Positions 1 to 41,685 of a DNA stretch of 41,685 bases are shown here, piece by piece. Numbering within the stretch: the stretch's first letter is position 1; every line of letters starts with the position of its first letter. Below the pieces are notes generated by a model that was given only the letters and a program-made list of their open reading frames with translations, was not told where the DNA came from and searched no databases. The translations under genes were made by a program, and so were the position numbers. Source of the DNA: a virus (taxonomy: Duplodnaviria; Heunggongvirae; Uroviricota; Caudoviricetes); IMG/VR virus record IMGVR_UViG_2541047729_000013. One strand, 5' to 3'.

Positions 1-516
1 ATGAAATTTAAAAAATGTCTTCTGCCTGTGGCAATGTTAGCGTCATTCACTCTGGCAGGATGCCAGTCAAATGCTGATGATCATGCCGCCGATGTTTATC
101 AAACCGATCAACTGAATACCAAACAAGAAACTAAAACCGTTAATATTATTTCCATTCTTCCCGCAAAAGTTGCCGTAGACAACGCCCAAAATAAACGGAA
201 CGCACAAGCCTTCGGCGCGCTTATTGGCGCTGTCGCTGGCGGTGTTATCGGCCACAACGTCGGGTCTGGCAGCAATTCCGGAACGACGGCAGGTGCAGTT
301 GGCGGCGGAGCTGTAGGCGCGGCAGCGGGTTCTATGGTGAATGATAAAACCTTAGTGGAAGGTGTTTCTTTAACATATAAGGAAGGCACCAAAGTGTATA
401 CCTCCACCCAGGTGGGTAAAGAGTGCCAGTTTACGACAGGTTTAGCCGTTGTTATTACCACGACGTATAACGAAACGCGTATTCAGCCAAATACCAAATG
501 TCCTGAAAAGAGCTAA
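1..516 (+). CDS. Putative lipoprotein with glycine-zipper region (probable host flank)
   Basis: Signal peptide ending in lipobox LAGC; Gly/Ala-rich stretch GALIGAVAGGVIGHNVGSG typical of glycine-zipper membrane-anchored proteins; upstream of the bidirectional terminator that precedes the phage lysis genes. Confidence 0.6.
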   Translation: MKFKKCLLPVAMLASFTLAGCQSNADDHAADVYQTDQLNTKQETKTVNIISILPAKVAVDNAQNKRNAQAFGALIGAVAGGVIGHNVGSGSNSGTTAGAVGGGAVGAAAGSMVNDKTLVEGVSLTYKEGTKVYTSTQVGKECQFTTGLAVVITTTYNETRIQPNTKCPEKS

Positions 517-531
517 TAATCAGGAGGAGTC

Positions 532-1071
532 ATGAAGAAAGTTTTTCTTTGCGCCATCTTAGCCTCCTTAAGCTATCCGGCTATCGCCTCATCATTGCAG
601 GATCAACTCTCGGCTGTCGCAGAAGCGGAACAGCAAGGTAAAAATGAAGAGCAAAGGCAGCATGACGAATGGGTCGCGGAGCGCAACAGGGAAATCCAGC
701 AAGAGAAGCAACGTCGCGCAAACGCCCAGGCCGCGGCTAATAAAAGAGCGGCAACGGCAGCAGCGAATAAGAAAGCTCGTCAGGATAAACTGGACGCCGA
801 AGCCACTGCGGACAAAAAACGCGATCAAAGTTATGAAGATGAGCTACGTAGCTTAGAGATTCAGAAACAAAAACTGGCGCTGGCGAAAGAAGAAGCCCGC
901 GTCAAGCGCGAAAACGAATTTATCGATCAGGAACTGAAGCACAAAGCTGCGCAAACCGATGTGGTGCAATCTGAAGCTGACGCAAACAGAAATATGACTG
1001 AAGGCGGTCGCGATCTGATGAAAAGCGTGGGTAAAGCAGAAGAGAATAAATCAGATAGCTGGTTTAACTAA
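532..1071 (+). CDS. Secreted coiled-coil protein, Lys/Ala/Gln/Glu-rich (probable host flank)
   Basis: RBS AGGAGG 6 nt upstream of ATG; N-terminal signal peptide (LSYPAIASS); remainder highly charged and low-complexity. Confidence 0.55.
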   Translation: MKKVFLCAILASLSYPAIASSLQDQLSAVAEAEQQGKNEEQRQHDEWVAERNREIQQEKQRRANAQAAANKRAATAAANKKARQDKLDAEATADKKRDQSYEDELRSLEIQKQKLALAKEEARVKRENEFIDQELKHKAAQTDVVQSEADANRNMTEGGRDLMKSVGKAEENKSDSWFN

Positions 1072-1110
1072 ACGATGTTAGTAACTTCAAACCTATAATT
1101 CTTTAGGATA

Positions 1111-1141
1111 AAAAAACCCTCTGTAGTAACAGAGGGTTTTG
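1111..1141. terminator. Bidirectional rho-independent terminator between convergent genes
   Basis: A-run, stem CCCTCTG / CAGAGGG with loop TAGTAA, then T-run; lies between the + gene ending at 1071 and the - spanin gene ending at 1290. Confidence 0.6.
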
Positions 1142-1289
1142 TTCATTCATAGTGCAGGGTCAAATCATTCCCACTCAATTATTTACGACAACCATAACCA
1201 ATTGAGTGATAACATTTTTCCAAATCTCAATTTTTCCCGTACCGTTTTATATACCGTCACCGGAAATCAGTACCATGAAAAATGCCATG

Positions 1290-1772
1290 CTATCTGGTCA
1301 AAGTGTCGTACTGTTTTTCGCAGACTCTTCCGGCTTCGGCTGCCCGGTCAGCATACTCTGCCAGTTGTCTGTTTCTCTCGAGAGATTTGCTGAGCACGTC
1401 GGCAAGCAAAACTCCGGTGTCTGCGGCTGACGACCCAGCGCCGACAATGGCGTTATACTGCCTGAGCTGCTCACGGATGGCAAAGAGTTGTTGCTGCAAC
1501 CGGCCAGCGCTAGCGGCAGCATCAAGAGCATCATTGCGCGCCTGGTCGATCCTCTGCTGAGCTTCACGTTCATTGGTCACTTTCTCCTGTTCGTAGTACT
1601 GACGAACTTTGTCTTCTTCGGCTTTGCTGTCTTCTTCCGCCTGAGCATACCCGGCATCGTACTGGCGACTGCCGTGTATATTCCAGGCAACCACTCCTGA
1701 TATGACCAGAACAGCAAGCACTGCCACGATAAGAAACTGTTTCCAGTATGCTTTTACGAATGCCCAGATCAT
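1290..1772 (-). CDS. Rz-like inner-membrane spanin
   Basis: N-terminal transmembrane segment followed by charged coiled-coil region; start overlaps endolysin stop (ATGA); last gene of the lysis cassette. Confidence 0.7.
1298..1573 (-). CDS. Rz1-like outer-membrane lipoprotein spanin embedded in the Rz frame
   Basis: ORF in alternative frame wholly inside the Rz gene; lipoprotein signal (RR, hydrophobic core, lipobox LAGC); Pro/Ser-rich mature part. This is the classic embedded Rz/Rz1 architecture. Confidence 0.5.
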   Translation of the reverse strand: MNVKLSRGSTRRAMMLLMLPLALAGCSNNSLPSVSSSGSITPLSALGRQPQTPEFCLPTCSANLSRETDNWQSMLTGQPKPEESAKNSTTL

Positions 1773-2398
1773 ACCGCCAGCACCTTACTGGCAGTGATGT
1801 ACCGCGCTCGCCGGTCGTCGATGCCGTTCCGGCCACCATTGATAATCAGAGTTACACGTGCAATATCGCCGGTATACTTCATGCATCCTTTGCTGGCGAA
1901 GAACCACGCCGCGCTACGAGCCGCATATTCGTCCTGCGCCAGCAGTTCAGGGCTCTCCAGCAGGTCAACCTTCAGACCGTTTCCGCAATCACGATAGTTA
2001 TTCAAACCGGTAATCTGGATAAGTCCGCGCCCTCGGTAATTCCAGCCATCACCAGGGGCATTGTTCCCCATGCGTTTGCTGTATACCAGATTTGCGATCG
2101 CGCGCTGGCGCTCAAGTGGCAATGGTGGTTCACCAGCACGGCGCCCCAGTGCATTAGCCTGCCCCTGAGTGAGACGCCCAGCCCGAACGAAGTTAGCCAG
2201 TCCGCTGACACTGTAGTTGAAATTCTCCTGCAACCTGGTGAAGCCCCCAGACTCATGCCCGACTTGAGCAATAAACATTGCCTGATCTTCTGCTTTGCTG
2301 ATACCAAACTCTTTCATCGCAGAAGTTATATGCGAGAACCAGCGTGCGGCCAGTGCCTCGCTGATACCAGCAGCTCGCTGGAATTGTTTAATCTCCAT
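1769..2398 (-). CDS. Endolysin, glycoside hydrolase family 19-like
   Basis: Start set at internal ATG ([13 protein letters not shown]...) rather than track start 2563; motifs [22 protein letters not shown] and AAWFF resemble GH19 phage lysins; sits between holin candidates and spanins. Confidence 0.8.
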
Positions 2399-2696
2399 GT
2401 TTAGACCTCGATACTTTAAAAATTTGAACGACGTTACCGCGCGTTTTAATAACCGCAGCCAGCATGACAGCGTTGATAATGACCTCAGATAAATCCACAG
2501 CCATTGGCGTACGTAACCAGATTGCATAGGCGACTCGAACAGGAATACTGGCCGCAGCAACAATCAGGAAATAAGCAAGCCATCCTCCCCACCTTCGATG
2601 TTGAGAGCCGTTACGCCGGAATGTGACAACGCGAATTGCTATGCCAGTGCAAATAACTGCATTAGTGATAAGCAAAAAAAACTCATGCGTTACCAT
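2388..2696 (-). CDS. Holin/antiholin-like small membrane protein
   Basis: About 100 aa with hydrophobic segments; overlaps the upstream membrane-protein gene and the endolysin start; position consistent with a lysis cassette. Confidence 0.45.
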
Positions 2697-3087
2697 CGTC
2701 TTTTCTCCCCGGAATTAACTCGCGTGGATTATCGGAACGGTGATAGAGCCATATACCAATACGCACAGCGACAATTGCTGACACGAATGCGCCTGCAGAG
2801 AAAACAATCCCTTTTTCAAAAGAGTCCTGCGTGATGGTAGGGATCAGGCTGGCTATGCCGATAAGAATTGATGCTGCTGGTTTGTAAAAGAGAAGGCCGC
2901 AAAGAAAGCTGAGCATCGACAGGAGCACCCGGCGACGGATGGGGTACTCTACTGCAGAGGTAACAAAAATTACCGCCCCAGCCAAAGCCCCTAAAGCAAC
3001 CTCCGGAGGGACACCTGCAATAACTGCAGCAAGAGAACCAAAACTAAGCAACTGATTTAATTGCTCACTTGTTACTTGAGCAGACAT
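2683..3087 (-). CDS. Holin-like multi-pass membrane protein
   Basis: 134 aa with several hydrophobic helices and a charged C-terminus; first gene of the lysis cassette after an AT-rich 300-bp intergenic region. Confidence 0.5.
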   Translation of the reverse strand: MSAQVTSEQLNQLLSFGSLAAVIAGVPPEVALGALAGAVIFVTSAVEYPIRRRVLLSMLSFLCGLLFYKPAASILIGIASLIPTITQDSFEKGIVFSAGAFVSAIVAVRIGIWLYHRSDNPRELIPGRKDDGNA

Positions 3088-3393
3088 ACTTTCTCCTGTT
3101 TACTATCTATAAGCCAGTCAATTATTGATGACTAAACCCGCATAGTAAACCATATATGAATCATTATTGTTCCATATCATATATCTCAATAAAAGTACTA
3201 ATGATTTTACAGAACGAGCCAGCAGAGTGGGGGCAGTTGTACAGGAACCATAGACTTAATTTTGTATTTAATAATGCTATGGTGTAATAAACCTGAACAT
3301 GTATTTAAAATACGTACTGATTCATGATAGAATTCAAAGATAACTTTTCACCAACTCCGTTTTTGATACCCGCAATATTTTGCGGGCTTTTTT

Positions 3394-6300
3394 TTAACGT
3401 TCTTCCAGAGACTGAACCCGCTCTTTTATCTTATCCATTTCTCTGCGCTGCCATGCTGCCTCGATATAGAATAAGAGATCAGGTCTGACCCCCCATCTAG
3501 ATCCTGCTGGCGTTATTTCAACGCGCTCAATGATGTCTTCTATTACCATCACTGGATTATCATCCTCATCAACAATGATGCTCCCGTCATTATCAGTCAG
3601 CGGCATTTCCCTTTGGCCAGTAATGACGTCATCATATACTGCGGGATAATCGTCATAGCAAAGAAAGGCATAGCGGCATGTTGTGCTTTCTTCTTCCATG
3701 AGTCCGTGAGAAATAAGAACATCACGAAGTTGCTGCGCGATTACACCATGATGTATCCTCGCCCCTTCTTCCCCCTTTATAGCGACAGCGTTCAGCCATT
3801 TATAAGCGATATACCTGACGTCACCCCAGGCATCCAGCAATGCTTCGTCAGGAGAGACCGGCTCTGTCTTTAATGTTCCGTCACTGGTAACCACAGGATT
3901 GGAGCCAAGATAAACTGTCGAGAACCTGTTTCCCGGACCACCAAGAGCATTTACATTATCAAGATAAGGTTTAACATCTCCGTTCTCAAAAAGATGTTCG
4001 AGTGCGTTATATACCGCGCGACGTGGAGTACTGCTTCCGGAACCATGCAACGTTATCATTGCACCATCTGCTGAAGACGTTGTTTCACCGCCGCTAACGA
4101 TTAATCTCTGAGCGGTAACATCATCAGACGGTACTTTCTTCGCAATAATGGCGTAATTACCCTCAAGTTTGACTTCCGCGCGAACTTGTCCTGATGTACC
4201 TGCATGGACAGTCAGTGACTGGACGGCAACATCATCTGTGAAATCAACGGGTACAGGAACCGTCCTCACGCCTGACGTCGACATAAAAGTAGGAAGCGTT
4301 CTGTTAGGAGTGGCTCCGTAGACAAAATCCCTTGAAACAAATTCTTCCTGTTTAATTTTCACCCTGAAACAATACAAATCAGCCGGGTGACCATCGTGAA
4401 AATAAGGATATTTTCTGTTGTTATCCCCTATGCTCCATGGGTTTAGAAAGTCTTCCCCACCGAAAATGTAGTACAGCCAGTTGTCTTTGATACAAACTGA
4501 ACCAACACCAACCGCAGAGTTAACTATTCCGCCCTGATAAATCTGATCAGTAACATTAACCCACTCTACATTATCCAGACTCCACTCATTGACGTTAACT
4601 CTGGTCATAAATGTTCTTGGATAATTTCCTGCATAACGGTTATCAGGTTCTCCTCCTTCCCACTCACCAAATGCGCGCTCACTGCCAAAAATAATCAGCT
4701 CATCGCCAACTTTGGCAAAAGGAAGGTTTGAGTGATGAACATTATTTGGGAAGCGAAGAGAATTCCATGATGTACCTAAATCAGAGCTTCTGTGCAATGA
4801 ACTACCGGGTTGAGTACTTAATGTCCCCCTGGTCGTCAGATACAGAATGCCATCATAATATTTTACACATGGCTCAGATGCATTCGCCTCATATTCTGCA
4901 GGTATGCGTCTGCGAACAAAGCTACCAGGAGAACCGAAAGCATCAGAGAAATAGAGTATCCCAAGCTCGCGTGGACCAATATCACCATTATGGTAGCCAA
5001 CAGCAAAACTGTTATCGCTAATCGTCGCAAAACTGTGAATCTCAGTAACAGGAGTGCTTCCGTCAACAAAAGAAGGAATAGTTCCAAGACTGGTTTTTCT
5101 CCATGGTGACGAGTGAAATGATGTACCAAAACTCCAGTATCTACCCTCGTTATTCTGATCCACATCCTGGGTATTTTGCGTCGTAACTGTAAAAGTATTT
5201 TTATCAATAACAGTAGTCACCGTCATATTCCCGGTAACACCTGTAACACCAGAGTTTGAGAAGTTGACAAAATCACCAGCAAATAATCCGTGATCAGTAA
5301 TGCGAATATAAGCGACTTGCTGATTTGCTGCTTTCGTTATACCACCATAAACGCGAAGGCTGCGACTCATTGGGCGATCCCACAACTCTGCAACCTGCAG
5401 TTTATTTCCGCTCACGGTCCGCGTCTCAATTACAGCAAAAAGGCGATTTCTGACAACCCCCATACTCATGCAGTGATAGTTAACTGTGGGATAGTTTTCA
5501 TGTAAATCTGTAAGCCATTCCGGCGTTGTCCAGGTCTTCCCGTCATCTCCTGAGCGAACCCATGCAACATGGAGGTTATTTACACCATGGCGGTCTCCAG
5601 CCATAAAAGGCGCATAGATGACATTGTCATATACAAACGTTTTATCCTGCGTCCAGGCGTTGTACCACGGTGTATCTGTAATTTTAAATAACTCTCCCTG
5701 GATAAAATCTTCAGAAGCATAAAAAAGAGGCTGGCCCGGTATTCTCTCAAATAAAAAACGAGCATTTTTAAATCGACTGACATCCGGAAGAGTTGATACT
5801 TTAAAAGTAAGCCCTAATCCGTCAATTTTATAACCTGGAGATGAGGCTTCAAGGCACGCGCTTATTGCAGTGGAATCGTCATTTATACCATCACCAACAG
5901 CTCCAAAATCTTTGGGGCTAATAGCATCACGCATTTTATCCTGGAACGTTCGGTACACAGCCCCAGAACCATACTGAATAAACCAACCAAAACCACCAAC
6001 AACCCCGGAGATTGCAGCATCGACATAATTACGCATTGAGCGATTATTTACAGCGTCCTGCTCAAATGATGGATCTGCAAGGTTAGAAATTTTGTTTTGC
6101 TTTGCATCGTAATATTTTGCAAGCAAAGATGGTTTCATCAATGCACGTCTGAACCACCCAAAACATTGCTGGATCAGCATCGTCAGGTAGTCAAAGGCAT
6201 CTTCATGCACTTCGGGGAAAAATTTTCCCTGATTGCGAAGGTCTGTCTCCTGCACTACATCAAGCACACGATCTATCGTAATTCGCCATCCAGTAGCAAG

Positions 6301-8108: not shown

Positions 8109-8195
8109 TAGTAATCGGGCATTGGAAAAATCCAGTGCCGGGATTGGCGTCCCGGATTACTAAAAGGCGCATTCACCGCGCAAGCGGTTTTTTTA
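8109..8195 (+). ncRNA. Candidate small structured RNA / leader riboregulator ending in an intrinsic terminator
   Basis: Closing stem TAGTAATC (8109-8116) / GATTACTA (8155-8162) encloses two hairpins (GGCATTGGA-AAAA-TCCAGTGCC and GGGA-TTGGCG-TCCC); followed by ACCGC-GCAA-GCGGT plus T7 run (8175-8195). No ORF; 150 nt upstream of the Bro-N start. Confidence 0.3.
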
Positions 8196-8351
8196 TGCGT
8201 ATAGCACGGCCACATTCGTATTATGGTGGGCTGTGTGGGGGCACCGAAAGGTGCGCCGGGTCCTTTTAGCCGGTTACGCCAACCCTGCACAGTTCACCAC
8301 CAACCGATTGGCGTCGGTAGTGGTGATTAACCAGACTAAAAGGTAACCACT

Positions 8352-9047
8352 ATGACAGCTACAAAAAGCACGTCCATTTTTTCTTTCGAATCCCAAGCCG
8401 ATATACGGGTAATCGTCATTAATGGTGAGCCATGGTTTATCGCTTCAGATGTTTGTCGGGCTATAGGCATAGCAAATCATCGAGATGCTGTTCGAAAACT
8501 TGATGATGATGAGAAGGGCGTCGCTTCAACCGACACCCCTGGCGGTGAGCAAGAATCGATCATCATCTCCGAGTCAGGCCTCTACACACTGATCCTCCGC
8601 TGCCGCGACGCAGTGACACCAGGCACTATCCCCTACCGCTTTCGTAAATGGGTTACAGGTGAGGTTCTTCCTCAGATCCGCCGCACCGGAAGTTACATTA
8701 AAAACTCGCTCCCGCAGGAAGAACGCATAAAGATGGTTGCCGACCAGGTAGCCAACGCCACAGCATCAGCAGTGATGCAGGCAATGAAGATAGAGAACAA
8801 AACCTACAGTGCCCCACTGAAGCCCGGCTACCGCAGCCTGATTCATTCGCCGTCTGGTGTTCTCGGCCTGACGGAGAACTCACTGCTGATGAATCTGCTG
8901 AACCAGTTACAGGAAGACGGGCACGACGTATCGGGCGCGGCGGCGGAGCTGACCACCATGTTCTGCTACATCGTCGGTGTGAGCAAGTGCCTGCGTGATA
9001 TCCAGACGCACGCGGAGTACATCAACGACAAGGCTGGGTTCTTCTGA
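8352..9047 (+). CDS. Bro-N domain antirepressor-like protein
   Basis: N-terminal hallmark IRVIVINGEPWFIASDVCRAIGIANHRDAVRKLDDDEKGV; C-terminal about 65 aa paralogous to the 6709-6966 protein; RBS AAGGT upstream. Confidence 0.75.
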   Translation: MTATKSTSIFSFESQADIRVIVINGEPWFIASDVCRAIGIANHRDAVRKLDDDEKGVASTDTPGGEQESIIISESGLYTLILRCRDAVTPGTIPYRFRKWVTGEVLPQIRRTGSYIKNSLPQEERIKMVADQVANATASAVMQAMKIENKTYSAPLKPGYRSLIHSPSGVLGLTENSLLMNLLNQLQEDGHDVSGAAAELTTMFCYIVGVSKCLRDIQTHAEYINDKAGFF

Positions 9048-26745: not shown

Positions 26746-26822
26746 GTGGCATTAGCTCAGTTGGACAGAGCAACCGCCTTCTAAGCGGTTGGTCGCAGGT
26801 TCGAATCCTGCATGCCACGCCA
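26746..26822 (+). tRNA. tRNA-Arg (anticodon UCU), phage-encoded
   Basis: Hand-folded cloverleaf: acceptor GTGGCAT/ATGCCAC, D-stem GCTC/GAGC, anticodon stem ACCGC/GCGGT with loop CTTCTAA (anticodon TCT), T-arm GCAGG-TTCGAAT-CCTGC, discriminator G, encoded CCA. Confidence 0.85.
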
Positions 26823-34724: not shown

Positions 34725-35309
34725 ATGAAAAGTATCCAGGACGTCCGCAGGCAAAATCTCAACGACTTGATCGACCGTGAATTCAATGGTGTTCAGACGC
34801 GGATGGCTGAAAAACTTGGAACTCAGGCAAATCTGGTAAACCGCTGGGCTCTTGGCAAGAAGGTTATCGGCGACCAGGTTGCACGAAAAATTGAAGCTGC
34901 CGCCAATAAACCCCGTAACTGGCTTGATATTGATCGCTCGCTTTCTCAGGAGGGTTTTCAGCCTGTCGGCCCGAGCGATATAGGTCAGCTGGCGGCTCAC
35001 AACCTGGAACGCTGGATGAGCGAAAGCCGCGACCTTTCAACGCAGGGAAAACTACACCGCGCATCCGGCGTCGCCCAGGTGACAATCAGCCGCCTGTTAA
35101 ACAATGAGGTCAGCGTTTCCATTTCCACCCTGGAGAATGTTGCATCCGCATTCGGGCGTCACGGCTATGAATTACTGATTCACCCGCACGACCCTGCGAC
35201 CATCAACTATGATCGCTCGCGCTACGCATTGTTACCCGAAACCGAGAAAGCAAAGATCGAAAGTTACATTGAATTTGTCATCAACCAGAACGAAAAAAAC
35301 AAACAATAA
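34725..35309 (+). CDS. CI-like prophage repressor without peptidase S24 domain
   Basis: N-terminal XRE-type HTH (TRMAEKLGTQANLVNRWALGKK) and a second HTH-like segment; no Ser-Lys autocleavage motifs; divergent from the cro-like gene; followed by a terminator. Confidence 0.7.
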   Translation: MKSIQDVRRQNLNDLIDREFNGVQTRMAEKLGTQANLVNRWALGKKVIGDQVARKIEAAANKPRNWLDIDRSLSQEGFQPVGPSDIGQLAAHNLERWMSESRDLSTQGKLHRASGVAQVTISRLLNNEVSVSISTLENVASAFGRHGYELLIHPHDPATINYDRSRYALLPETEKAKIESYIEFVINQNEKNKQ

Positions 35310-35330
35310 AATCATATTTTTCAGTAAGTA

Positions 35331-35354
35331 AGCCGCCTTCTGGCGGCTTTTTTA
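35331..35354 (+). terminator. Rho-independent terminator after the repressor gene
   Basis: AGCCGCC-TTCT-GGCGGCT followed by TTTTTT. Confidence 0.75.
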
Positions 35355-35365
35355 TTGCCTATACG

Positions 35366-35444
35366 ATTACCTAACGGGTAATTTTTTTAACTCATATCTA
35401 TTGACATCAAACCAGATACGCATAATCATTACCTCAACGGTAAC
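35366..35444 (+). promoter_or_regulatory. OL-like operators and early-left promoter
   Basis: ATTACCTAACGGGTAAT (35366-35382), TTGACA at 35401-35406, ATTACCTCAACGGTAAC (35428-35444) and a further GGTAA half-site, upstream of the first early-left ORF. Confidence 0.55.
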
Positions 35445-35462: not shown

Positions 35463-35624
35463 ATGCAGTGGAAAATCATCAACGGTTGGTACTGCGTTAC
35501 TGCATGCGGATTCATGAGCTGGAAGTTCCGCACCTTACAGGAAGGCATTAAGTGGGCTTTCGTCAGCAAAGAAGCTCGCGATGTGGCAAACGATAACGAG
35601 ATATGGGAGGAGGTTAGCAAATGA
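35463..35624 (+). CDS. Small early protein (53 aa), first gene of the early-left operon
   Basis: ATG preceded by GAGGT; stop overlaps the next gene start (ATGA); translation MQWKIINGWYCVTACGFMSWKFRTLQEGIKWAFVSKEARDVANDNEIWEEVSK; below the track size cutoff. Confidence 0.35.
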   Translation: MQWKIINGWYCVTACGFMSWKFRTLQEGIKWAFVSKEARDVANDNEIWEEVSK

Positions 35625-36655
35625 GTGAATTATCAATCATCGAAATCACACCAGATATGGCACCAAGAATTTACGTTGAAAAAGGACTAGAAAAGTTTCT
35701 CGAGCAGATCCGCGAAGGTGTTAATGAAGTGCCTGACATTAGCACAGACAAAGGAAGAAAGCGCATTGCATCTCTGGCTGCGAAGGTTTCAAGAAGTAAA
35801 ACAGCGGTAGAAAAACCAGGACGTGATTATCTGAAACGCCTGAAAGAACAGCCGAAAGTAGTTGAAGCAGAGTTGCGACGCTTCGTAACCGAATGCGATC
35901 GGCTTCGTGATGAAGTACGCCGCCCACTCACCGAGTGGGAAAATGCTGAGAAATTACGCACTGAAGCACTGCAACAACGCCTGACAAATTTGCGAGCACT
36001 GGCTGACGTGATCGATCTCTCCGGAAACTACTTGCCATCATCTGATATTCAGGAACGAATTCAAGAGGCTAAATCAGTAGCACTTGATGAAAGTTGGCAG
36101 GAGTACGCAGCAGAAGCTGGAGTAGCCAAGGATTCAACCATCCAGAAACTGGAAGAATCACTCGCAGTAGCTCAAAAACGCGAGCATGAAGCCGCTGAGC
36201 TGGAGCGACTTCGCAAAGAAGCGGAGGAAAAAGCGCGCATTGAGCGAGAAGAGAATATCCGCCGGGAAGCTGCTGAACAGGCCAGGCTCGAAGCTGAACA
36301 AAAAGCGAAAGCTGAAATTGATGCTGCGGCACGCCTGGCGGCGGAAGAAAAAGCACGTGCTGAAGTAGCAGAACGTCAGCGAATTGAAGCAGAGCAGCGT
36401 GCACGACGCGAAAAAGAAGAAGCCGTTGCCGAGGAACGCCGACGCCAAGAGGCGGAAGAAAAAGCCCGCCTTGACGAACAGAAGCGTATCGCCGACGAAG
36501 AAGCGCGCCGAGCTGCAGATAAAGAGCATCGCCGTACCGTTAACCGCAGAGTAATCGCAGATCTGATAGCCCAAGGCATTCCCGAAGAATTCGCGCAGAA
36601 AGCAATGTTGGCTATCGCTGGCGGCAAAGTGCAGGACGCGTATATCAAATATTGA
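35621..36655 (+). CDS. Coiled-coil protein with Glu/Ala/Lys/Arg-rich repeats (DUF1351-like position)
   Basis: 344 aa; central AEEKAR/EAEQ-type repeats; precedes the YqaJ/RecT module. Confidence 0.55.
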   Translation: MSELSIIEITPDMAPRIYVEKGLEKFLEQIREGVNEVPDISTDKGRKRIASLAAKVSRSKTAVEKPGRDYLKRLKEQPKVVEAELRRFVTECDRLRDEVRRPLTEWENAEKLRTEALQQRLTNLRALADVIDLSGNYLPSSDIQERIQEAKSVALDESWQEYAAEAGVAKDSTIQKLEESLAVAQKREHEAAELERLRKEAEEKARIEREENIRREAAEQARLEAEQKAKAEIDAAARLAAEEKARAEVAERQRIEAEQRARREKEEAVAEERRRQEAEEKARLDEQKRIADEEARRAADKEHRRTVNRRVIADLIAQGIPEEFAQKAMLAIAGGKVQDAYIKY

Positions 36656-36662
36656 GGTGGGT

Positions 36663-36962
36663 ATGAACGTTAATCAGCAGAAAAATCTTCAAAAAATCAT
36701 GCTGGCATTCGACAAGGACTACCGCCTGTCAGAACAGCTATATGACCGACAAGTTGAACTGATCGATAGCATCCGGCTTCATCAACTGGCCTCAACTTTT
36801 GACGCTGTAACAGGCAAAGGAGTTCGCCAGGAAGTGCTGGAGGCTGCTAAAGACAGCCCTGAGTTCGAAGAACTGACAGATTCCTACCGGCGCGAGGCAA
36901 TGGCAATTATCGCACGCTGGGATCTGGCGGATCGGATTGATGGGCAGAGGGAAGCGGCATGA
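36663..36962 (+). CDS. Hypothetical early protein
   Basis: RBS GAGGTGGG before ATG at 36663 (track begins at GTG 36657); stop overlaps the exonuclease start. Confidence 0.5.
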   Translation: MNVNQQKNLQKIMLAFDKDYRLSEQLYDRQVELIDSIRLHQLASTFDAVTGKGVRQEVLEAAKDSPEFEELTDSYRREAMAIIARWDLADRIDGQREAA

Positions 36963-37858
36963 TGCAGAACGCTGGAATCATGGATAGAACAAAATACATC
37001 GGAGGAAGCGATGTTGCAGGGATTCTTGGAATTAGCCCATGGCGCACCCCGCTTGAGGTTTATCTGGATAAGGTCCAGCCACGTGTCAAACCAGTAGACC
37101 CAAGCAAGCAGAAAGTTTTCACGCGTGGCCAGCGTATGGAGCCATACGTAATAGACCTGCTTTCTGAGGAAACAGGGATGGAAATCGTTCATCGCGGAAA
37201 CCGCTATATCCACCGTGATTACGATTTTATTGCAGCTGAGATCGATGCAGAAGCAGCGTCAGGCGAGAACATTGAGATCAAAACAGTTAGTCCGTTCAAA
37301 GCCAAAGAATGGGGAGAAATCCAGACAGATGCAATTCCTGTGCATTACACGGCCCAGGCCATGCACGGGTTGATGGTTACAAACAAACAGGTATGCGTTT
37401 TCGGTGTGCTTATCGGTGGCGACGACTTCCGAATCTATCGGGTTGAGCGTGATGAAGAAACTATCCAGGCGATCTTAGAAAAAGAAATCGCTTTCTGGGA
37501 CCGAGTGAAAAATCTTAACCCGCCGGAAGCTACCAGCGTAAGCGATGTATCGCTGATGTTTGAGAAAGATGCCGGGACAAGTATCGAGGCTGACGGAAAG
37601 GCACTCGCACTATTCAACGATCTACGAGACATGAAGTCACGCAGAAAATCACTGGAAGAAGAAATAGCTATATCAGAAGAGAAGCTGAAGATGTACATGC
37701 AAGAGCACTCAGTCCTGACCCTGGACGGAAAGCCGCTCTGCACATGGAAATCTCAGATCAGCAACAGATTCGACCAGAAGCTATTCCAGTCAGTACACCC
37801 TGAGTTATTCGAAAAATTCAAAACAACAACGACACAACGCGTCTTCAGAATGAAGTAA
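36959..37858 (+). CDS. YqaJ-like recombination exonuclease
   Basis: N-terminal motif IGGSDVAGILGISPWRTPLEVY typical of YqaJ/lambda-Exo-type nucleases; directly upstream of RecT. Confidence 0.8.
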   Translation: MMQNAGIMDRTKYIGGSDVAGILGISPWRTPLEVYLDKVQPRVKPVDPSKQKVFTRGQRMEPYVIDLLSEETGMEIVHRGNRYIHRDYDFIAAEIDAEAASGENIEIKTVSPFKAKEWGEIQTDAIPVHYTAQAMHGLMVTNKQVCVFGVLIGGDDFRIYRVERDEETIQAILEKEIAFWDRVKNLNPPEATSVSDVSLMFEKDAGTSIEADGKALALFNDLRDMKSRRKSLEEEIAISEEKLKMYMQEHSVLTLDGKPLCTWKSQISNRFDQKLFQSVHPELFEKFKTTTTQRVFRMK

Positions 37859-37867
37859 GGAGAAAAA

Positions 37868-38890
37868 ATGTCTATCAATGCACTTAAGGCAGCGGCTACC
37901 GGTAACCAAGTTGCACATCATAATGAGAAACTAACAACTCTGGCCGGACTTCTGGCAGACCCAAAAATTAAAGCTCAGATGGCTTTGGCACTTCCAAAGC
38001 ACATGACAGCAGACCGTCTGGCGCGCATAGCAACCACAGAGATCCGAAAGGTTCCAAAACTTGCATCATGCGACCAAGCCAGCTTCCTGGGGGCAATTAT
38101 GCAATGTGCCCAATTGGGTCTTGAACCAGGCGGAGCTCTTGGACACGCTTACCTGATACCGTTCGACAAACGCCAGAAAGTAAATGGAAGATGGGAAACC
38201 GTATCTACAGAAGCACAGCTGATTATCGGCTATCGCGGAATGATTGACCTTGCCCGCCGCTCTGGGCAGATCCTGAGTATCTCGGCTCGTACCGTACATA
38301 CAAACGACAAATTCAGCTACTCATACGGCCTGGAAGAAACGCTCGAGCATTTACCTTGCGAAACAGGTGACCGCGGAGAATTAACGCACGTTTACGCCGT
38401 TGCACGACTGAAAGATGGCGGAGTCCAATTTGAAGTTATGAGCCGGGCAGACATTGAGAAAGTTCGTGCACTGAGCAAAGCCGGTAGCAGTGGCCCATGG
38501 GTTGATCACTTCGATGAGATGGCTAAAAAAACAGTAATTCGCCGACTATTCAAATATCTTCCTGTTTCTATTGAAATGCAGAAGGCTGTTGTTATGGATG
38601 AGCGCGCTGAAGCTGGACTTAGCCAAGATAACGCAGCTGTTATCACTGGTGAATATTCCGTAGTTGACGATGAGCGTCAACACCTGTCGCCAATTTCAGA
38701 TTCAGAACGAGAAGAAGCTCGAGAATATATCATCGCGATACTTAATAGCCTGGATCCATCTGCTGAAGATGCAAAAACGATGTTCAAGCGCGCTGAAAAT
38801 GAGATTAACACCATGGCTGAAAAGCTCGGTGATGAATATCACCAAAAATTCATGATGACGCTTAACGATATGCGTCCAGAATTCGAGTAA
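37868..38890 (+). CDS. recT: RecT-family single-strand annealing protein
   Basis: 340 aa; segments ASFLGAIMQCAQLGLEPGG and LIIGYRGMIDLARRSGQ resemble RecT family; paired with YqaJ exonuclease. Confidence 0.8.
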   Translation: MSINALKAAATGNQVAHHNEKLTTLAGLLADPKIKAQMALALPKHMTADRLARIATTEIRKVPKLASCDQASFLGAIMQCAQLGLEPGGALGHAYLIPFDKRQKVNGRWETVSTEAQLIIGYRGMIDLARRSGQILSISARTVHTNDKFSYSYGLEETLEHLPCETGDRGELTHVYAVARLKDGGVQFEVMSRADIEKVRALSKAGSSGPWVDHFDEMAKKTVIRRLFKYLPVSIEMQKAVVMDERAEAGLSQDNAAVITGEYSVVDDERQHLSPISDSEREEAREYIIAILNSLDPSAEDAKTMFKRAENEINTMAEKLGDEYHQKFMMTLNDMRPEFE

Positions 38891-38939
38891 CCACCACCGC
38901 GGTGCCACACGCGCCGCACTGCAACCAAGAGAGGTATTT

Positions 38940-39188
38940 ATGAAAGGTGCATTAGGTAAGAAGGAACTCCTGGCGGTGGTGCCACTGTCATGGAGCACTA
39001 TCGACCGTATGGAGCGCGCAGGGGAATTTCCTAAACGCTGGTATATCACTGACAAACGCTGCGCATGGAACCGTGACGAAGTTGAGCGTTGGCTTGATGA
39101 ACGTCAGGCAGCAAGCCCGGCAGAGTTCCAGGGTAAAAAACCTCCTGTTCAGCAACGTGTATATCGTCCTGTGAGCAACGCGGCATGA
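38940..39188 (+). CDS. AlpA-family regulator / excisionase-like protein
   Basis: 82 aa; LSWSTIDRMERAGEFPK HTH typical of AlpA-like prophage regulators; RBS GAGAGG. Confidence 0.65.
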   Translation: MKGALGKKELLAVVPLSWSTIDRMERAGEFPKRWYITDKRCAWNRDEVERWLDERQAASPAEFQGKKPPVQQRVYRPVSNAA

Positions 39189-39301
39189 GTGTGCTGCTAA
39201 GGCACTGGAGCAAATGGTCAGGATGGTACTTATTCCTGGCCTCTGTTTCAGCATGGCTTTATCTGCTGGCATTAATTTTCAGAGAGGGTTGGATTAAGTG
39301 A
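39185..39301 (+). CDS. Small hydrophobic peptide (38 aa), translationally coupled
   Basis: ATG overlaps the AlpA-like stop (ATGA) and its TGA overlaps the next GTG start; MSVLLRHWSKWSGWYLFLASVSAWLYLLALIFREGWIK has one predicted transmembrane helix; below track cutoff. Confidence 0.35.
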   Translation: MSVLLRHWSKWSGWYLFLASVSAWLYLLALIFREGWIK

Positions 39302-39597
39302 GAAAGTTAAGCCGACTTGAAAAATATCACATGAACAAGGTTTCAATGCGCAGCCCTTCAAAGGTTGTTGCCGTTACTCCTGCGGCGATAGAGATCGAAA
39401 AACGCGCGATTGAAAGAGAGAAAAAAGGGCAATTCCGCATTGCCGCTCACCTTTGGCTTCAGTGTATGGATGTTGCTTCTGGTGATGTTGAACGTGCAAG
39501 GATCGCGGTTCGCAGGGACCAATGTATCACAAAAGGTAACGGCCTTCGCCGTGGCGACTATAGCGGCATAGGATGTTGTGGGGTGGTTTATGACTAA
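39298..39597 (+). CDS. Hypothetical protein
   Basis: 99-aa ORF from GTG (or ATG near 39331); overlaps the methyltransferase start. Confidence 0.4.
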   Translation: MRKLSRLEKYHMNKVSMRSPSKVVAVTPAAIEIEKRAIEREKKGQFRIAAHLWLQCMDVASGDVERARIAVRRDQCITKGNGLRRGDYSGIGCCGVVYD

Positions 39598-40240
39598 GAA
39601 ATACACACTAATCTATGCAGATCCACCCTGGGTATACCGGGACAAAGCCGCAGATGGTAATCGCGGTGCCGGTTTTAAATATCCGGTTATGAGTGTGCTG
39701 GATATCTGCCGCCTTCCTGTGTGGGATTTGGCCGATGAAAACTGTCTGTTGGCCATGTGGTGGGTGCCAACACAACCACTCGAAGCACTAAAAGTTGTTG
39801 AAGCCTGGGGATTCCGTCTGATGACCATGAAGGGCTTCACGTGGATAAAATGTGGTAGTCGACAACCAGATAAACTGGTTATGGGTATGGGACACATGAC
39901 TCGCGCCAATAGTGAAGATTGCCTGTTTGCGGTAAAGGGAAAACTACCTACGCGCATTAATGCAGGGATCGTTCAGTCATTTACCGCACCGCGGCTTGAG
40001 CATTCAAGAAAGCCAGATATCGTTCGTGAAAAACTTGTGCAATTATTAGGCGATGTTTCTCGCATTGAACTGTTCGCCCGCCAGACGTCTCATGGCTTCG
40101 ATGTTTGGGGTAATCAGTGCGAAGACCCGGCAGTGCAACTACACCCTGGATACGCGTTGGATATTGGCGGATTAACAAATGCATTCAGCAATGCTCCGCT
40201 GTCACCAACAGACAACCAGGGGCGGGAGCGTGCTGCATGA
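39590..40240 (+). CDS. MT-A70-family N6-adenine DNA methyltransferase (orphan)
   Basis: Start at MTKKYTLIYADPPWVY; DPPW catalytic motif; no adjacent restriction-endonuclease-sized gene. Confidence 0.8.
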   Translation: MTKKYTLIYADPPWVYRDKAADGNRGAGFKYPVMSVLDICRLPVWDLADENCLLAMWWVPTQPLEALKVVEAWGFRLMTMKGFTWIKCGSRQPDKLVMGMGHMTRANSEDCLFAVKGKLPTRINAGIVQSFTAPRLEHSRKPDIVREKLVQLLGDVSRIELFARQTSHGFDVWGNQCEDPAVQLHPGYALDIGGLTNAFSNAPLSPTDNQGRERAA

Positions 40241-40431
40241 ACAGGGCATCACCAGCAGATTTAAGAAAATGCCTTGAAACTGCAAACATGCTTGCACACA
40301 GCGGGATCAGGTTTGTTCCAATTCCCGCTGTCACTGATGCTGAATTTGCAACACTGTCAGCAATATTCGAAAACAAAATTGAATCACTGGCAGCAGAAGC
40401 AGAGATGGAAGAAAATCAGCAGAACTATTAA
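40237..40431 (+). CDS. Small protein (DUF1382-like)
   Basis: 64 aa from an ATG overlapping the MTase stop; MNRASPADLRKCLETANMLAHSGIRFVPIP...; family assignment from memory. Confidence 0.45.
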   Translation: MNRASPADLRKCLETANMLAHSGIRFVPIPAVTDAEFATLSAIFENKIESLAAEAEMEENQQNY

Positions 40432-40434
40432 ACG

Positions 40435-41685
40435 TTATTCCCCCGCCATCCACTTCTCAAACTTCGACGGGGAGAACGGAATCAGATCCGTATGCTCCCC
40501 GTCAATCCATGAATCAATCATATCGGCCCACTGCTGCAACATGTAGGCGCGCTGTCTGGCGTATTCCGCTTTGTTATATACGGCGCGCACACCTTTCTGC
40601 TCATGTGCCAGAGCCTTTTCAATCCAGTCTGAAGGATAACCAGCCTCATGCAACAACGTACTGGCTGTACGGCGCATATCATGTACAGTGAAGTCCTGAA
40701 TATGCTCACCATCTTCATTTATTATTTTCACCGTTCTGTCGATCAGAGAGTTCAGCGCGGCATTAGATAATGGCTTCCGGAAATTGTAACGACCAGGAAC
40801 CAGATATTCACTTCCACCAGCGCACATCTGCAACCCGACCAATATATCCTGTGCCTGTTTAGGCAGGTAAATAACGTGCGCCCGGCTTCCCTTCATGCGG
40901 TCTGGAGGAATTGTCCATGTCCATTTTTTAAAATCTATTTCATCCCACGTTGCATTGGTGAATTCGCCCTTACGAACCATAGTGATAAGCACCAGTTTTA
41001 AAGCCATTTTCATAGTGCCCATAGCACCAATGGCATCCAGCGTGCGGAAGAACAGGCCAATTTCTTCTGGTGTCAGTGTTCGCTCTCGTGGTTTAAATAT
41101 GGCGATAGACGAAGGTTTAATGTCAGCCGCAGGATTAAACAAACCATGACCACGGTCATTGGCGTGACGGTATACGCTACTGATGATCTCCCTGGCCTGC
41201 ACTGCTGTTGCCCGGCCACCGCGTTCGACAATCCGGTCACACAAATCACGAACCATCGATGTGGTAATTTCAGCCATCATTTTATTGCCAAGAACCGGAA
41301 GTATGTCACGGTCGATCACCGCCTGTTTCATTGCGCGGGTACTGTCAGCCAGGATGACGTGTTTCATATAACTGTCGGTATGTACCGCAAACGTCTCGGC
41401 ACCACGAATCTTTTTGATACCGTCACGTTTAGCCGCAGCCGGTGACTGGCCTGCTTTAAGCAGCTTCTTTGCAGCAATCAGTTCTTCTCGCGCTTCTGCC
41501 AGGCTGATACCGTCATGCCCATACTGCCCGATTACCAGTGTTTCGCGGCGACCGTTGATACGGTAGTCATAGCGAAACGAGACCGTGCCTGACGTAAGCA
41601 CAGCTACATACAGCCCGTCACGATCGGAGACCTTGTACAGTTTGTCCTGCGGCTTGAGGTTTTTTAATTTTGTATCGGTAAGCAC
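40435..41685 (-). CDS. int: Tyrosine integrase, P4-like; N-terminus at window edge
   Basis: N-terminus LTDTKLKNLKPQDKLYKVSDRDGLYVAV typical of P4-type integrases; catalytic-region residues (HDMRRTASTLL, ALAH, VRAVYNKAEY); first codon in window is GTG at 41683-41685, so the true start may lie outside. Confidence 0.85.
   Translation of the reverse strand: MLTDTKLKNLKPQDKLYKVSDRDGLYVAVLTSGTVSFRYDYRINGRRETLVIGQYGHDGISLAEAREELIAAKKLLKAGQSPAAAKRDGIKKIRGAETFAVHTDSYMKHVILADSTRAMKQAVIDRDILPVLGNKMMAEITTSMVRDLCDRIVERGGRATAVQAREIISSVYRHANDRGHGLFNPAADIKPSSIAIFKPRERTLTPEEIGLFFRTLDAIGAMGTMKMALKLVLITMVRKGEFTNATWDEIDFKKWTWTIPPDRMKGSRAHVIYLPKQAQDILVGLQMCAGGSEYLVPGRYNFRKPLSNAALNSLIDRTVKIINEDGEHIQDFTVHDMRRTASTLLHEAGYPSDWIEKALAHEQKGVRAVYNKAEYARQRAYMLQQWADMIDSWIDGEHTDLIPFSPSKFEKWMAGE

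Follow-up and report, generated by a model that had tools for sequence, protein, structure and literature searches.

The five small genes at positions 38940-40431 of the window (the whole stretch of DNA that was analysed, 41,685 nucleotides) very probably form the promoter-distal end of the early-left operon of a temperate podovirus of the phiV10/epsilon15 type (Uetakevirus), which sits beside guaA. All five lie on the + strand and are real open reading frames. The cluster is ordinary and already catalogued. The RefSeq entries of phiV10 and epsilon15 annotate it gene by gene, hence it is not a novelty, and what is new are annotation refinements only. A preliminary description, made from the letters alone, is partly supported in its interpretation. 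It had reported a five-gene cluster next to the integrase, which we confirm. It let this cluster begin at 39185, which leaves out the AlpA gene that it had itself listed; the AlpA gene begins at 38940. The genes of the cluster and the adjoining integrase gene are:

38940-39188, + strand: AlpA-like gene, 82 aa, with a good Shine-Dalgarno sequence (GAGAGG)
39185-39301, + strand: 38-aa open reading frame, Trp-rich single-pass membrane peptide of the epsilon15 gp32 / phiV10 p35 family
39298-39597, + strand: PerC-family small regulator, 99 aa, GTG start
39590-40240, + strand: predicted MT-A70 N6-adenine methyltransferase, solitary, 216 aa, motif D11-P12-P13-W14
40237-40431, + strand: DUF1382 protein, lambda Orf63 homologue, 64 aa
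40435-41685, - strand: P4-type tyrosine integrase, 416 aa, convergent, with the Pfam domains Arm-DNA-bind_3, Phage_int_M and Phage_integrase; corresponds to phiV10 p31

Collinearity with the 39-kb phiV10 genome extends over the whole window and takes in the genes for terminase, head, tail and lysis. Over positions 38887-41685 the DNA is 98.2% identical to that of phiV10, and phiV10 (NC_007804) annotates all five genes as p36 to p32. The stretch is 100% identical to the chromosome of E. coli SF-468, where it is integrated beside guaA. The module occurs in 559 of 5426 complete E. coli genomes (~10%), and the infectious isolates phiV10, ZX5, phiv142-3 and typing phages 9 and 10 carry it at 98% identity.

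The cluster could alternatively belong to a phage satellite (PICI) or a degraded island instead of a functional phage. AlpA-family and PerC genes paired beside an integrase, as in the window, are a hallmark of E. coli PICIs (PMC11773190). Against this, the whole window, structural and lysis genes included, is collinear with a complete phage, and infectious phages bear the same module. We thus reject the satellite interpretation as extremely improbable.

The same gene order recurs in phages of Escherichia, Salmonella, Enterobacter and Klebsiella. We compared it in epsilon15, Tyrion, BUCT554, BUCT711, one Klebsiella prophage and Enterobacter kobei prophages. Across these relatives the order exo, recT, AlpA, small peptide, PerC, (DUF1317/wHTH), MT-A70, (small gene) and convergent int is kept. 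Genes, order, overlaps and the convergent P4-type integrase are shared with both phiV10 p36-p32 and epsilon15 gp33-gp28. In epsilon15 the AlpA, peptide and PerC genes are ~78% identical in DNA to those of the window. There are also differences. In phiV10 the exonuclease and RecT are fused, whereas the window has separate YqaJ and RecT genes, as epsilon15 does. Between PerC and the methyltransferase, epsilon15 and its relatives have DUF1317 (lambda orf60a-like), sometimes together with a winged-helix gene, and DUF1382 is missing from them. A scan of IMG/VR loci with the methyltransferase returned only 98-100% identical proviruses, which are uninformative on diversity and were used for population counts.

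Because the gene order recurs, the families match and the 38-aa reading frame is under frame-specific purifying selection, the cluster is more than a chance arrangement. Curated families are matched above threshold by four of the five proteins; the fifth, the 38-aa peptide, matches phrog_17484 over its full length. The names AlpA, MT-A70 (with DPPW) and DUF1382 given earlier were correct, as Pfam matches above the curated cut-offs show. The 99-aa protein had been left unnamed and belongs to the PerC family, and the link from DUF1382 to lambda Orf63 had been missed. A search of Rfam found no RNA family in the 38940-40431 region.

The five genes overlap at all four junctions, and the tightly overlapping cluster beside the integrase is probably translationally coupled, as had been proposed. 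The overlaps had all been described as ATGA or GTGA. This holds for three junctions with 4-nt overlaps: ATGA between AlpA and the 38-aa gene, GTGA between the 38-aa and 99-aa genes, and ATGA between the methyltransferase and DUF1382 genes. It does not hold for the junction between the 99-aa gene and the methyltransferase gene, which is ATGACTAA, an 8-nt overlap and neither ATGA nor GTGA. The methyltransferase starts at the ATG at 39590 and not at the upstream GTG at 39578; its homologues start MTKKYTLIYADPPW or MPNKYTLIYADPPW at the equivalent position. Where the 99-aa gene has its GTG start, epsilon15, Tyrion and Klebsiella phages have an ATG at the same overlapping position, and PGAP agrees with this start. 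RefSeq phiV10 instead lets PerC begin at a later ATG, which yields 88 aa compared to 99 aa in the window. On the other side of the cluster, the stop codons of the convergent DUF1382 and integrase genes are 3 nt apart, and the window ends exactly at the integrase start codon.

The following features upstream of the cluster bear on its transcription:

34725-35309: repressor-like HTH gene (HTH domain match), just upstream of the putative promoter
35330-35349: terminator-like hairpin between the HTH gene and the putative promoter
35401..35429, + strand: putative early-left promoter, TTGACA, 17-nt spacer, AATCAT, from a consensus scan only
36959-37858, + strand: YqaJ-type exonuclease gene (Pfam YqaJ, E 2.8e-23)
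37868-38890, + strand: RecT annealing protein gene (Pfam RecT, E 2.6e-57)

The exonuclease and RecT genes lie directly upstream of the five genes, in the same order as in epsilon15. We infer that the site at 35401..35429 is the promoter of the operon. At the equivalent place the epsilon15 annotation has repressor operators. Counting against the promoter call, promoter-like sites are fewer in the region than expected by chance (4 found, 9.4 expected). No + strand terminator is predicted from 35401..35429 to 40431, and neither promoters nor terminators are predicted on the + strand within 38.6-40.4 kb. The five genes hence appear to lie at the far end of a repressor-controlled early operon. Once the repressor of the prophage has lost its activity, a single long transcript, probably starting at ~35.4 kb, would pass the exonuclease and RecT genes and then the five genes with their overlapping stop and start codons. 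Ribosomes could re-initiate from gene to gene and in this way reach the 38-aa gene, which has a weak ribosome-binding site. Since the genes seem to sit at the far end of a repressor-controlled operon with no internal promoter, the comparison of a lysogen with a cured strain, which had been suggested for detecting methylation, would probably reveal nothing unless the lysogen is induced. Because only 3 nt and no terminator separate the operon from the convergent integrase gene, its transcripts may also run antisense into int. Such read-through fits awkwardly with an excisionase and an integrase that are made together.

The first gene of the cluster encodes an AlpA-family winged-helix protein. 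It matches Pfam Phage_AlpA (PF05930) with 24.2 bits (cut-off 21), phrog_66 'excisionase and transcriptional regulator' (E 2e-16) and the AlpA-family protein of PDB entry 8c3t (E 1.8e-11). Its counterparts are phiV10 p36 and epsilon15 gp33. The P4-type integrase with its Arm-DNA-bind_3 domain is encoded 1.2 kb downstream. The AlpA protein is probably the excisionase, or directionality factor, for this integrase, a role drawn from family and position only, and it possibly also activates the integrase gene.

The 38-aa open reading frame is a real gene, under purifying selection in its own frame only: dN/dS is 0.12-0.25 in frame and about 0.5-3.5 out of frame. It had been called a small membrane peptide earlier, and it is indeed genuine, conserved and single-pass, with a hydrophobic segment at about residues 14-32. 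It occurs in 35 phage records (66-100% identity), and in all of them AlpA and PerC flank it. An intact product is encoded in at least 71 of 80 close proviruses, with two disrupted variants among those listed; natural truncations to 32-33 aa are tolerated. The match to phrog_17484 (E 4.7e-27) is the only one, as searches of Pfam, NCBIfam and PADLOC returned no family, known small-toxin families included. The peptide family is tiny, with 7 representative clusters among 1.84 billion proteins. PGAP leaves the gene out in SF-468 and likewise in those rows that were sampled from 562 matching E. coli records. The product would be an inner-membrane peptide that is made together with the other early-operon products.

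The 99-aa protein matches Pfam PerC (PF06069) with 30.1 bits (cut-off 22.6, E 6e-7), an alignment that covers residues 35-80 only, that is, profile positions 5-50 of 90. It matches phrog_868 with E 6.5e-62, and its PGAP name is likewise PerC. A match to the ANR family is sub-threshold, and among solved structures no relative was found. The above-threshold Pfam match is shared with the PerC/Pch activators of the LEE island and with the PerC-like genes of PICIs. Compared to PerC/Pch, the window protein aligns over just 46 of the 90 profile positions and has the sub-threshold ANR match in addition. We would call it a PerC/ANR-like small regulator. PerC-like proteins from mobile elements activate LEE1, leave it unaffected or repress it (PMC11773190). 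Because these proteins differ in their effect, the function of PerC is not transferable to the window protein.

The methyltransferase is, by its family matches, an MT-A70-family N6-adenine methyltransferase. Residues 5-176 align to positions 1-172 of the 172 positions of Pfam MT-A70 (PF05063; 80 bits, cut-off 23.9, E 2.6e-22), and PADLOC MTase_II is matched with E 2.7e-77. Both DPPW (residues 11-14) and the C-terminal block ELFAR...G(W/F)D.WGN are present; P12, W14, E160, F162, G169, W173 and G174 are invariant among 25 relatives. Sequence matches in the PDB are Tetrahymena MTA1 (4e-13) and METTL3 (6e-6). The same two proteins are the best PDB matches of an AlphaFold model (TM ~0.5, probability 1.0), which gives weak fold support only and nothing reliable on loops or a recognition domain, given its low confidence (mean pLDDT 59, shallow alignment). 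Beyond the 172-position core the enzyme has an unconserved tail and no obvious target-recognition domain.

The gene is solitary, as claimed before. Its neighbours are PerC, DUF1382 and the integrase; the endonuclease expected of a Type II restriction-modification pair does not lie beside it. Among the unassigned open reading frames of the window, several of which have no known function, we recognised no restriction enzyme. Relatives at 70-78% identity are also solitary. They occur in three contexts (the nin region, behind lysis genes, behind replication genes), in which no nuclease and no constant neighbour accompanies them. M.EcoGII is likewise a solitary adenine methyltransferase that is borne on a prophage and silent in the lysogen. 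We rejected it as a relative: it is a 349-aa, non-specific beta-class enzyme with a central target-recognition domain and DPPY, whereas the window enzyme is of the MT-A70 family with DPPW.

Over residues 1-187 the methyltransferase is 83.4% identical to gp5 of the Stx2a phage phiPA8 (M.EcoPA8orf6770P). As judged by this similarity, it is the orthologue of the catalytic subunit of the M.EcoPA8orf6770P-PNB-2 16S rRNA holoenzyme. A published mutagenesis primer matches the equivalent gene in the Stx2a phage 06-3462 (locus L008). Together with PNB-2, M.EcoPA8orf6770P has been reported to methylate 16S rRNA (Gong et al. 2023, PMC10810198). By itself the enzyme is weak and non-specific; it prefers 16S rRNA once PNB-2 is bound, and on DNA, unmethylated GATC DNA included, its activity is weak (PMC10810198). 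M.EcoGV, a relative of the phiPA8 enzyme, is listed as GATC-specific on DNA and methylated GATC in vivo when over-produced (PMC6602927, PMC10810198). The number of GATC sites in the window is uninformative in this respect (163 observed, 163 expected).

In phiPA8, gp6-gp5-gp4 are PNB-2, M.EcoPA8orf6770P and a DUF1382 protein, at the same place as in the window, where the early-left operon ends next to a convergent int. Common to both phages are the DPPW motif and a DUF1382 gene after the methyltransferase gene. The DUF1382 proteins are 51% identical. In contrast, the window, a podovirus of another lineage, has neither PNB-2 nor PNB-1. A tblastn search with PNB-2, a 143-aa winged-helix subunit, against the whole window returned nothing at E <= 1, and homologues of PNB-1 or PNB-2 are found nowhere in it at E <= 1e-5. 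The slot upstream of the methyltransferase gene holds PerC in the window and PNB-2 in phiPA8. A weak local match to PNB-1 (E 7e-4, 38 aa) is treated as chance, and the 76-aa protein upstream of the methyltransferase in phage 06-3462 has chance matches only. The window enzyme also lacks the ~27 C-terminal residues of the Stx type that are proposed to bind PNB-2. The alignment ends at residue 187, and its last ~29 residues are unrelated to those of phiPA8. It is PNB-2 that guides the Stx-phage orthologue to 16S rRNA, and because the window lacks it we favour DNA as the substrate over rRNA. There is about an even chance that the enzyme, whose production would be confined to lytic development, methylates phage DNA as it replicates, like M.EcoGV at GATC.

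The preliminary description went further and read the enzyme as a classical orphan DNA methylase with an anti-restriction or epigenetic role, and the 38-aa product as a Kil-like host-killing peptide. We regard this combined reading as tenable but rather doubtful. The solitary gene, its DPPW motif and the missing nuclease agree with it, as do the strong match to PADLOC Type II methyltransferase models and the GATC methylation by over-produced M.EcoGV. However, the host E. coli Dam already methylates GATC, hence a GATC-specific phage enzyme would bring no obvious extra protection. The orthologue's weak DNA activity in vitro and its preference for 16S rRNA also speak against a simple DNA-methylase role (PMC10810198). 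Thus the anti-restriction or epigenetic role remains a candidate and is only one option, given that the orthologue preferred 16S rRNA together with PNB-2. The peptide, for its part, is conserved, spans the membrane once and belongs to an early operon, and PHROGs places phrog_17484 in the category 'moron, auxiliary metabolic gene and host takeover'. Yet the parallel to lambda Kil is one of position only; at E <= 0.1 the peptide has no match in Pfam, not even to Kil. Lambda Kil is not known to be a membrane protein. The tiny family offers no functional clue, and tolerated truncations of the peptide also count against a Kil-like killer.

Alternatively, the enzyme may mainly methylate 16S rRNA and promote induction, like phiPA8 gp5-PNB-2, with the Orf63/DUF1382 or the PerC-like protein as its targeting partner. 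We consider this unlikely, although several observations fit it. The catalytic domain is the one shared at 83.4% identity with an enzyme that is weak and non-specific alone, and MT-A70 enzymes usually require partners (PMC10810198). Both METTL3 and MTA1, the closest relatives of solved structure, are obligate hetero-oligomers, and the window enzyme has little beyond the MT-A70 core. DUF1382 adjoins this methyltransferase in three ways. In Stx2a phages it comes after the methyltransferase gene and overlaps it by 41 nt, in the window it comes after it with an overlap of 4 nt, and in E. kobei prophages it comes before it, again overlapping it by 4 nt. By primer mapping, the DUF1382 gene was also present on the construct published for 'PNB-2 + methyltransferase' co-expression, and both Orf63 and the Stx-phage methyltransferase favour lytic development. 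But the window has no PNB-2 homologue, and the tail thought to bind PNB-2 differs past residue 187. Behind the same methyltransferase, 20 of 80 near-identical proviruses have a phosphatase or some other gene in place of DUF1382. Close relatives of the enzyme occur without DUF1382 and without PerC, while lambda and many Stx phages have Orf63 without any MT-A70. Furthermore, the rRNA claim itself rests on SAM-consumption assays, in which the modified base was not identified (PMC10810198).

The last gene of the cluster is, according to its sequence matches, a full-length homologue of lambda Orf63 from the exo-xis region. Its product matches Pfam DUF1382 (PF07131) over positions 1-60 of 60 (105 bits, cut-off 27, E 1.8e-30) and lambda Orf63 in PDB entry 8dsb with E 8.5e-13, ~49% of the aligned residues being identical. 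Our search for DUF1382 homologues yielded 28 proteins only, as the word index limits short queries, and gene contexts were taken from four of these clusters. Lambda Orf63 is an intertwined dimer of solved structure and is pro-lytic (PMC10869804). Like lambda Orf63, the homologue would push development towards lysis. In lambda, Orf63 occupies the equivalent early-left place, between the recombination genes and int. There it lies beside Orf60a (DUF1317) and without MT-A70, whereas in the window its homologue is coupled to the methyltransferase gene and Orf60a is absent. That the two form a functional pair, in which Orf63 with its helix-binding cleft serves as an alternative targeting or regulatory subunit of the methyltransferase, is in our estimate very improbable. 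If it were true, the pro-lytic phenotype of Orf63 would be linked to the induction-promoting effect of the Stx-phage enzyme. Published 'PNB-2 + methyltransferase' preparations might then have held a third component, because the construct included the DUF1382 gene.

The finding is at present of little consequence, for the cluster has been catalogued and belongs to a prophage family that is common in E. coli. The gene of the 38-aa membrane peptide is under selection, yet the NCBI pipeline omits it from E. coli chromosomes, and it could be added to their annotation. In ~10% of complete E. coli genomes there is a methyltransferase that shares 83% identity with the enzyme claimed as the first prophage rRNA methyltransferase, but that stands without the targeting subunit of this enzyme. 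Such prophages without PNB-2 hence offer a natural test of whether the enzyme acts on DNA, on RNA or with another partner. The accessory genes Orf63 and Orf60a are common to the early-left ends of Uetakevirus phages and the lambdoid exo-xis region, so results from lambda and Stx phages may carry over.

The five-gene cluster is a module of a common prophage and was catalogued before now, at the level of annotation. It is 98-99% identical to its counterpart in the isolated E. coli podoviruses phiV10, phiv142-3, ZX5 and O157 typing phages 9 and 10; its first half is ~78% identical to the Salmonella epsilon15 group. The phiV10 genome (39 kb) is collinear with the whole window in reverse orientation, with some mosaic replacements. 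RefSeq annotates all five genes in phiV10 (p36, AlpA; p35, membrane protein; p34, transcriptional activator; p33, DNA methyltransferase; p32, DUF1382), and the epsilon15 equivalents are annotated as gp33-gp28. The stretch occurs in 559 of 5426 complete E. coli genomes; in the SF-468 chromosome it is 100% identical, and the integrase abuts guaA. For two of the five gene families, experimental work exists in related phages. The value left lies in an incompletely annotated 38-aa gene, a naturally occurring form of a debated methyltransferase that lacks its partner PNB-2, and an accessory-gene link between Uetakevirus and the lambdoid exo-xis region.

Genes of the cluster and the integrase (ORF reading for the five genes)
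38940-39188, +, AlpA-like gene, 82 aa
39185-39301, +, 38-aa peptide gene
39298-39597, +, PerC-like gene, 99 aa, GTG start
39590-40240, +, MT-A70 methyltransferase gene, 216 aa
40237-40431, +, DUF1382 gene, 64 aa
40435-41685, convergent with the five genes, integrase, stop 3 nt past the end of the last gene

The observation in the preliminary description is confirmed, and its interpretation is supported in part. There are indeed five consecutive plus-strand ORFs, but not every junction is an ATGA or GTGA as claimed: in order they read ATGA, GTGA, ATGACTAA (an 8-nt overlap) and ATGA. The start then given for the operon, 39185, omits the AlpA gene (38940-39188) that its own title names. A strong Shine-Dalgarno sequence precedes this first gene alone, and the 38-aa gene has almost none, a pattern that re-initiation of translation would fit.

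All five proteins match PHROGs, and Pfam assigns four families: Phage_AlpA (24.2 bits, cut-off 21), PerC (30.1 against 22.6, residues 35-80 of the 99-aa protein, previously left unnamed), MT-A70 (full-length, E 2.6e-22) and DUF1382 (full-length, E 1.8e-30). The integrase is of the P4 type (Pfam). The PerC-like protein also has a sub-threshold match to the ANR family. AlpA and PerC beside an integrase are typical of E. coli PICIs too (PMC11773190). Since PerC-like proteins of mobile elements can activate, repress or have no effect on LEE1 (PMC11773190), the direction of regulation is not transferable, only the description "small regulator". The window stops (41685) precisely with the integrase start codon. 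Many IMG/VR proviruses end likewise, a hint of provirus trimming at gene boundaries.

Upstream features
34725-35309, same strand as the five genes, repressor-like HTH gene
35330-35349, terminator-like hairpin (prediction scan)
35401-35429, promoter-like site (consensus scan only)

In our reading, the five genes make up the promoter-distal part of an early-left operon under repressor control, an analogue of the lambda exo-xis region, whose promoter is assigned by consensus scan only. This reading follows from four observations. The promoter-like site is followed on the same strand by small genes, a 344-aa protein, a YqaJ exonuclease and RecT. No plus-strand terminator is predicted from the promoter-like site to 40431. 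Repressor operators are annotated at the equivalent position in epsilon15. Finally, Tyrion, BUCT554, BUCT711, a Klebsiella prophage and Enterobacter kobei prophages keep the order exo, recT, AlpA, peptide, PerC, an optional DUF1317 or winged-helix gene, MT-A70, an optional small gene and convergent int. The DUF1317 protein found in sister phages is lambda Orf60a.

Because the gap between operon and integrase (40431-40435) is 3 nt and holds no predicted terminator, early-left transcripts may run antisense into int; phiPA8, a Stx2a phage, has a comparable convergent xis/int overlap. At the head of the operon, the 344-aa ORF (35621-36655, +) has no Pfam match and a single PHROGs match, phrog_1376 (unknown function); the segment around it (~35610-36663) does not align to phiV10. 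Neither does 36959-38890, where YqaJ and RecT are separate genes as in epsilon15, whereas phiV10 p37 is annotated as a single fused exonuclease-RecT gene.

Comparison among relatives shows that the 38-aa gene is real. With tblastn we recovered it from 35 phage records, every match full-length (66-100% identity) and flanked by AlpA and PerC. Overlaps are also seen in epsilon15, Tyrion and Klebsiella phages: the AlpA stop and the peptide start share ATGA or GTGA, and the peptide stop overlaps the ATG start of PerC, which supports the GTG start of the window's 99-aa gene. Pairwise dN/dS is 0.12-0.25 in its own frame against ~0.5-3.5 in the two other frames. Counted from the commonest products listed, at least 71 of 80 near-identical proviruses carry intact copies; two disrupted variants are among those listed, one with a stop at codon 34. 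Enterobacter phages, including E. kobei prophages at guaA, have a natural 32-aa form.

The peptide has one hydrophobic segment (~residues 14-32) and five tryptophans. Its PHROGs match is phrog_17484, aligned along the entire peptide (E 4.7e-27). When 1.84 billion representative proteins were searched exhaustively without a profile, only seven clusters matched: six hold small proteins (38-75 aa), and the seventh, a repetitive 281-aa protein, looks like a chance match. Searches of Pfam, NCBIfam and PADLOC returned no family, so no toxin family and no Kil. A membrane-directed role in host takeover or exclusion is our guess. In E. coli chromosomes PGAP skips the gene and leaves 109 nt unannotated between AlpA and PerC (SF-468, 3790-3898 of the stretch compared). 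RefSeq phiV10 places the PerC start at a later ATG (88 aa), while relatives support the overlapping GTG (99 aa).

The methyltransferase consists essentially of an MT-A70 core (residues 5-176) and an unconserved tail of ~40 residues. DPPW and a C-terminal ELFAR...GFDVWGN block are conserved among its relatives. By sequence, Tetrahymena MTA1 and human METTL3 are its closest relatives of solved structure, and a low-confidence model (pLDDT 59) suggests the same folds. There are more than 2500 homologues, mostly ~195-aa Enterobacterales proteins. Relatives at 70-78% identity are found in the nin region of lambdoid phages (flanked by NinB and NinD), downstream of lysis genes or downstream of replication genes; these contexts show no nuclease and share no constant neighbour. 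Nor did the window yield any protein recognisable as nuclease-like, and the earlier term "orphan" holds. PADLOC calls the enzyme a Type II methylase. M.EcoGII, a first candidate relative, was dropped as an unrelated DPPY enzyme.

The informative comparison is M.EcoPA8orf6770P, an MT-A70/DPPW enzyme encoded near the integrase of phiPA8 as gp5 (Gong, Chakraborty, Koudelka, NAR 2023, PMC10810198). The two enzymes are 83.4% identical over residues 1-187, but their tails are unrelated. Alone, the phiPA8 enzyme has weak, non-specific activity; with PNB-2, the upstream gene product, it forms a 1:1 complex that prefers 16S rRNA, and it increased spontaneous induction (PMC10810198). The window enzyme could likewise act on rRNA with another partner, which we consider unlikely: nothing homologous to PNB-2 (143 aa) is encoded anywhere in the window. 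The phiPA8 protein PNB-1 (225 aa) has a weak local match there (E 7e-4), taken as chance. Over-produced M.EcoGV, a close relative of the phiPA8 enzyme, methylated GATC (PMC10810198), and a methylome paper lists it as GATC-specific (PMC6602927). We favour DNA methylation in lytic growth as the role of the window enzyme, at about even odds.

The 64-aa DUF1382 protein, previously treated as uncharacterised, matches lambda Orf63 (PDB 8dsb, E 8.5e-13). Orf63, which the exo-xis region encodes, is an intertwined dimer that brings lysis forward and reduces host survival (PMC10869804). In phiPA8 the gene directly after the methyltransferase, gp4, encodes a DUF1382 protein that shares 51% identity with the one in the window. 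In favour of a functional link between methyltransferase and Orf63/DUF1382, the two genes are adjacent and overlapping in three arrangements, with the methyltransferase first in Stx2a phages and the window, and DUF1382 first in E. kobei prophages (at guaA, the site used by the window's relatives). Moreover, the published primers of the F2 "PNB-2 + methyltransferase" construct fall at 3282-2056 on phiPA8 (KP682374), with gp4 inside. Yet 20 of the 80 near-identical proviruses keep the same methyltransferase with another gene in place of DUF1382 (positions 3648-3842; a Ser/Thr phosphatase in 17, a different gene in three), DUF1382 is absent beside many methyltransferase relatives, and Orf63 occurs without MT-A70 in lambda, 933W and Stx1 phages. 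We regard such a link as very improbable.

Phages HEMP4, PAS61 and BP9 have the phosphatase variant too, as do some E. coli chromosomes. The F1 insert of phiPA8 extends to 1634 and includes gp3 as well; the extra genes are undiscussed in PMC10810198. Some E. kobei prophages have an added cysteine-rich 124-aa gene in the interval between methyltransferase and int.

Features elsewhere in the window
1-516, +, glycine-zipper/TraT-like protein ORF, beyond the lysis genes at the other window end
532-1071, +, DUF5384 protein ORF, beyond the lysis genes at the other window end
8119-8194, +, isrK-like RNA (Rfam)
8219-8304, +, C4 antisense RNA (Rfam)
8352-9047, +, Bro-N antirepressor-like gene, directly downstream of both RNAs
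26746-26822, +, tRNA-Arg gene (anticodon TCT), inside the prophage

The ORFs at 1-516 and 532-1071 have no alignment to phiV10 and may be cargo genes. The two RNAs and the Bro-N gene look like an RNA-controlled antirepressor module of the P1/P7 type.
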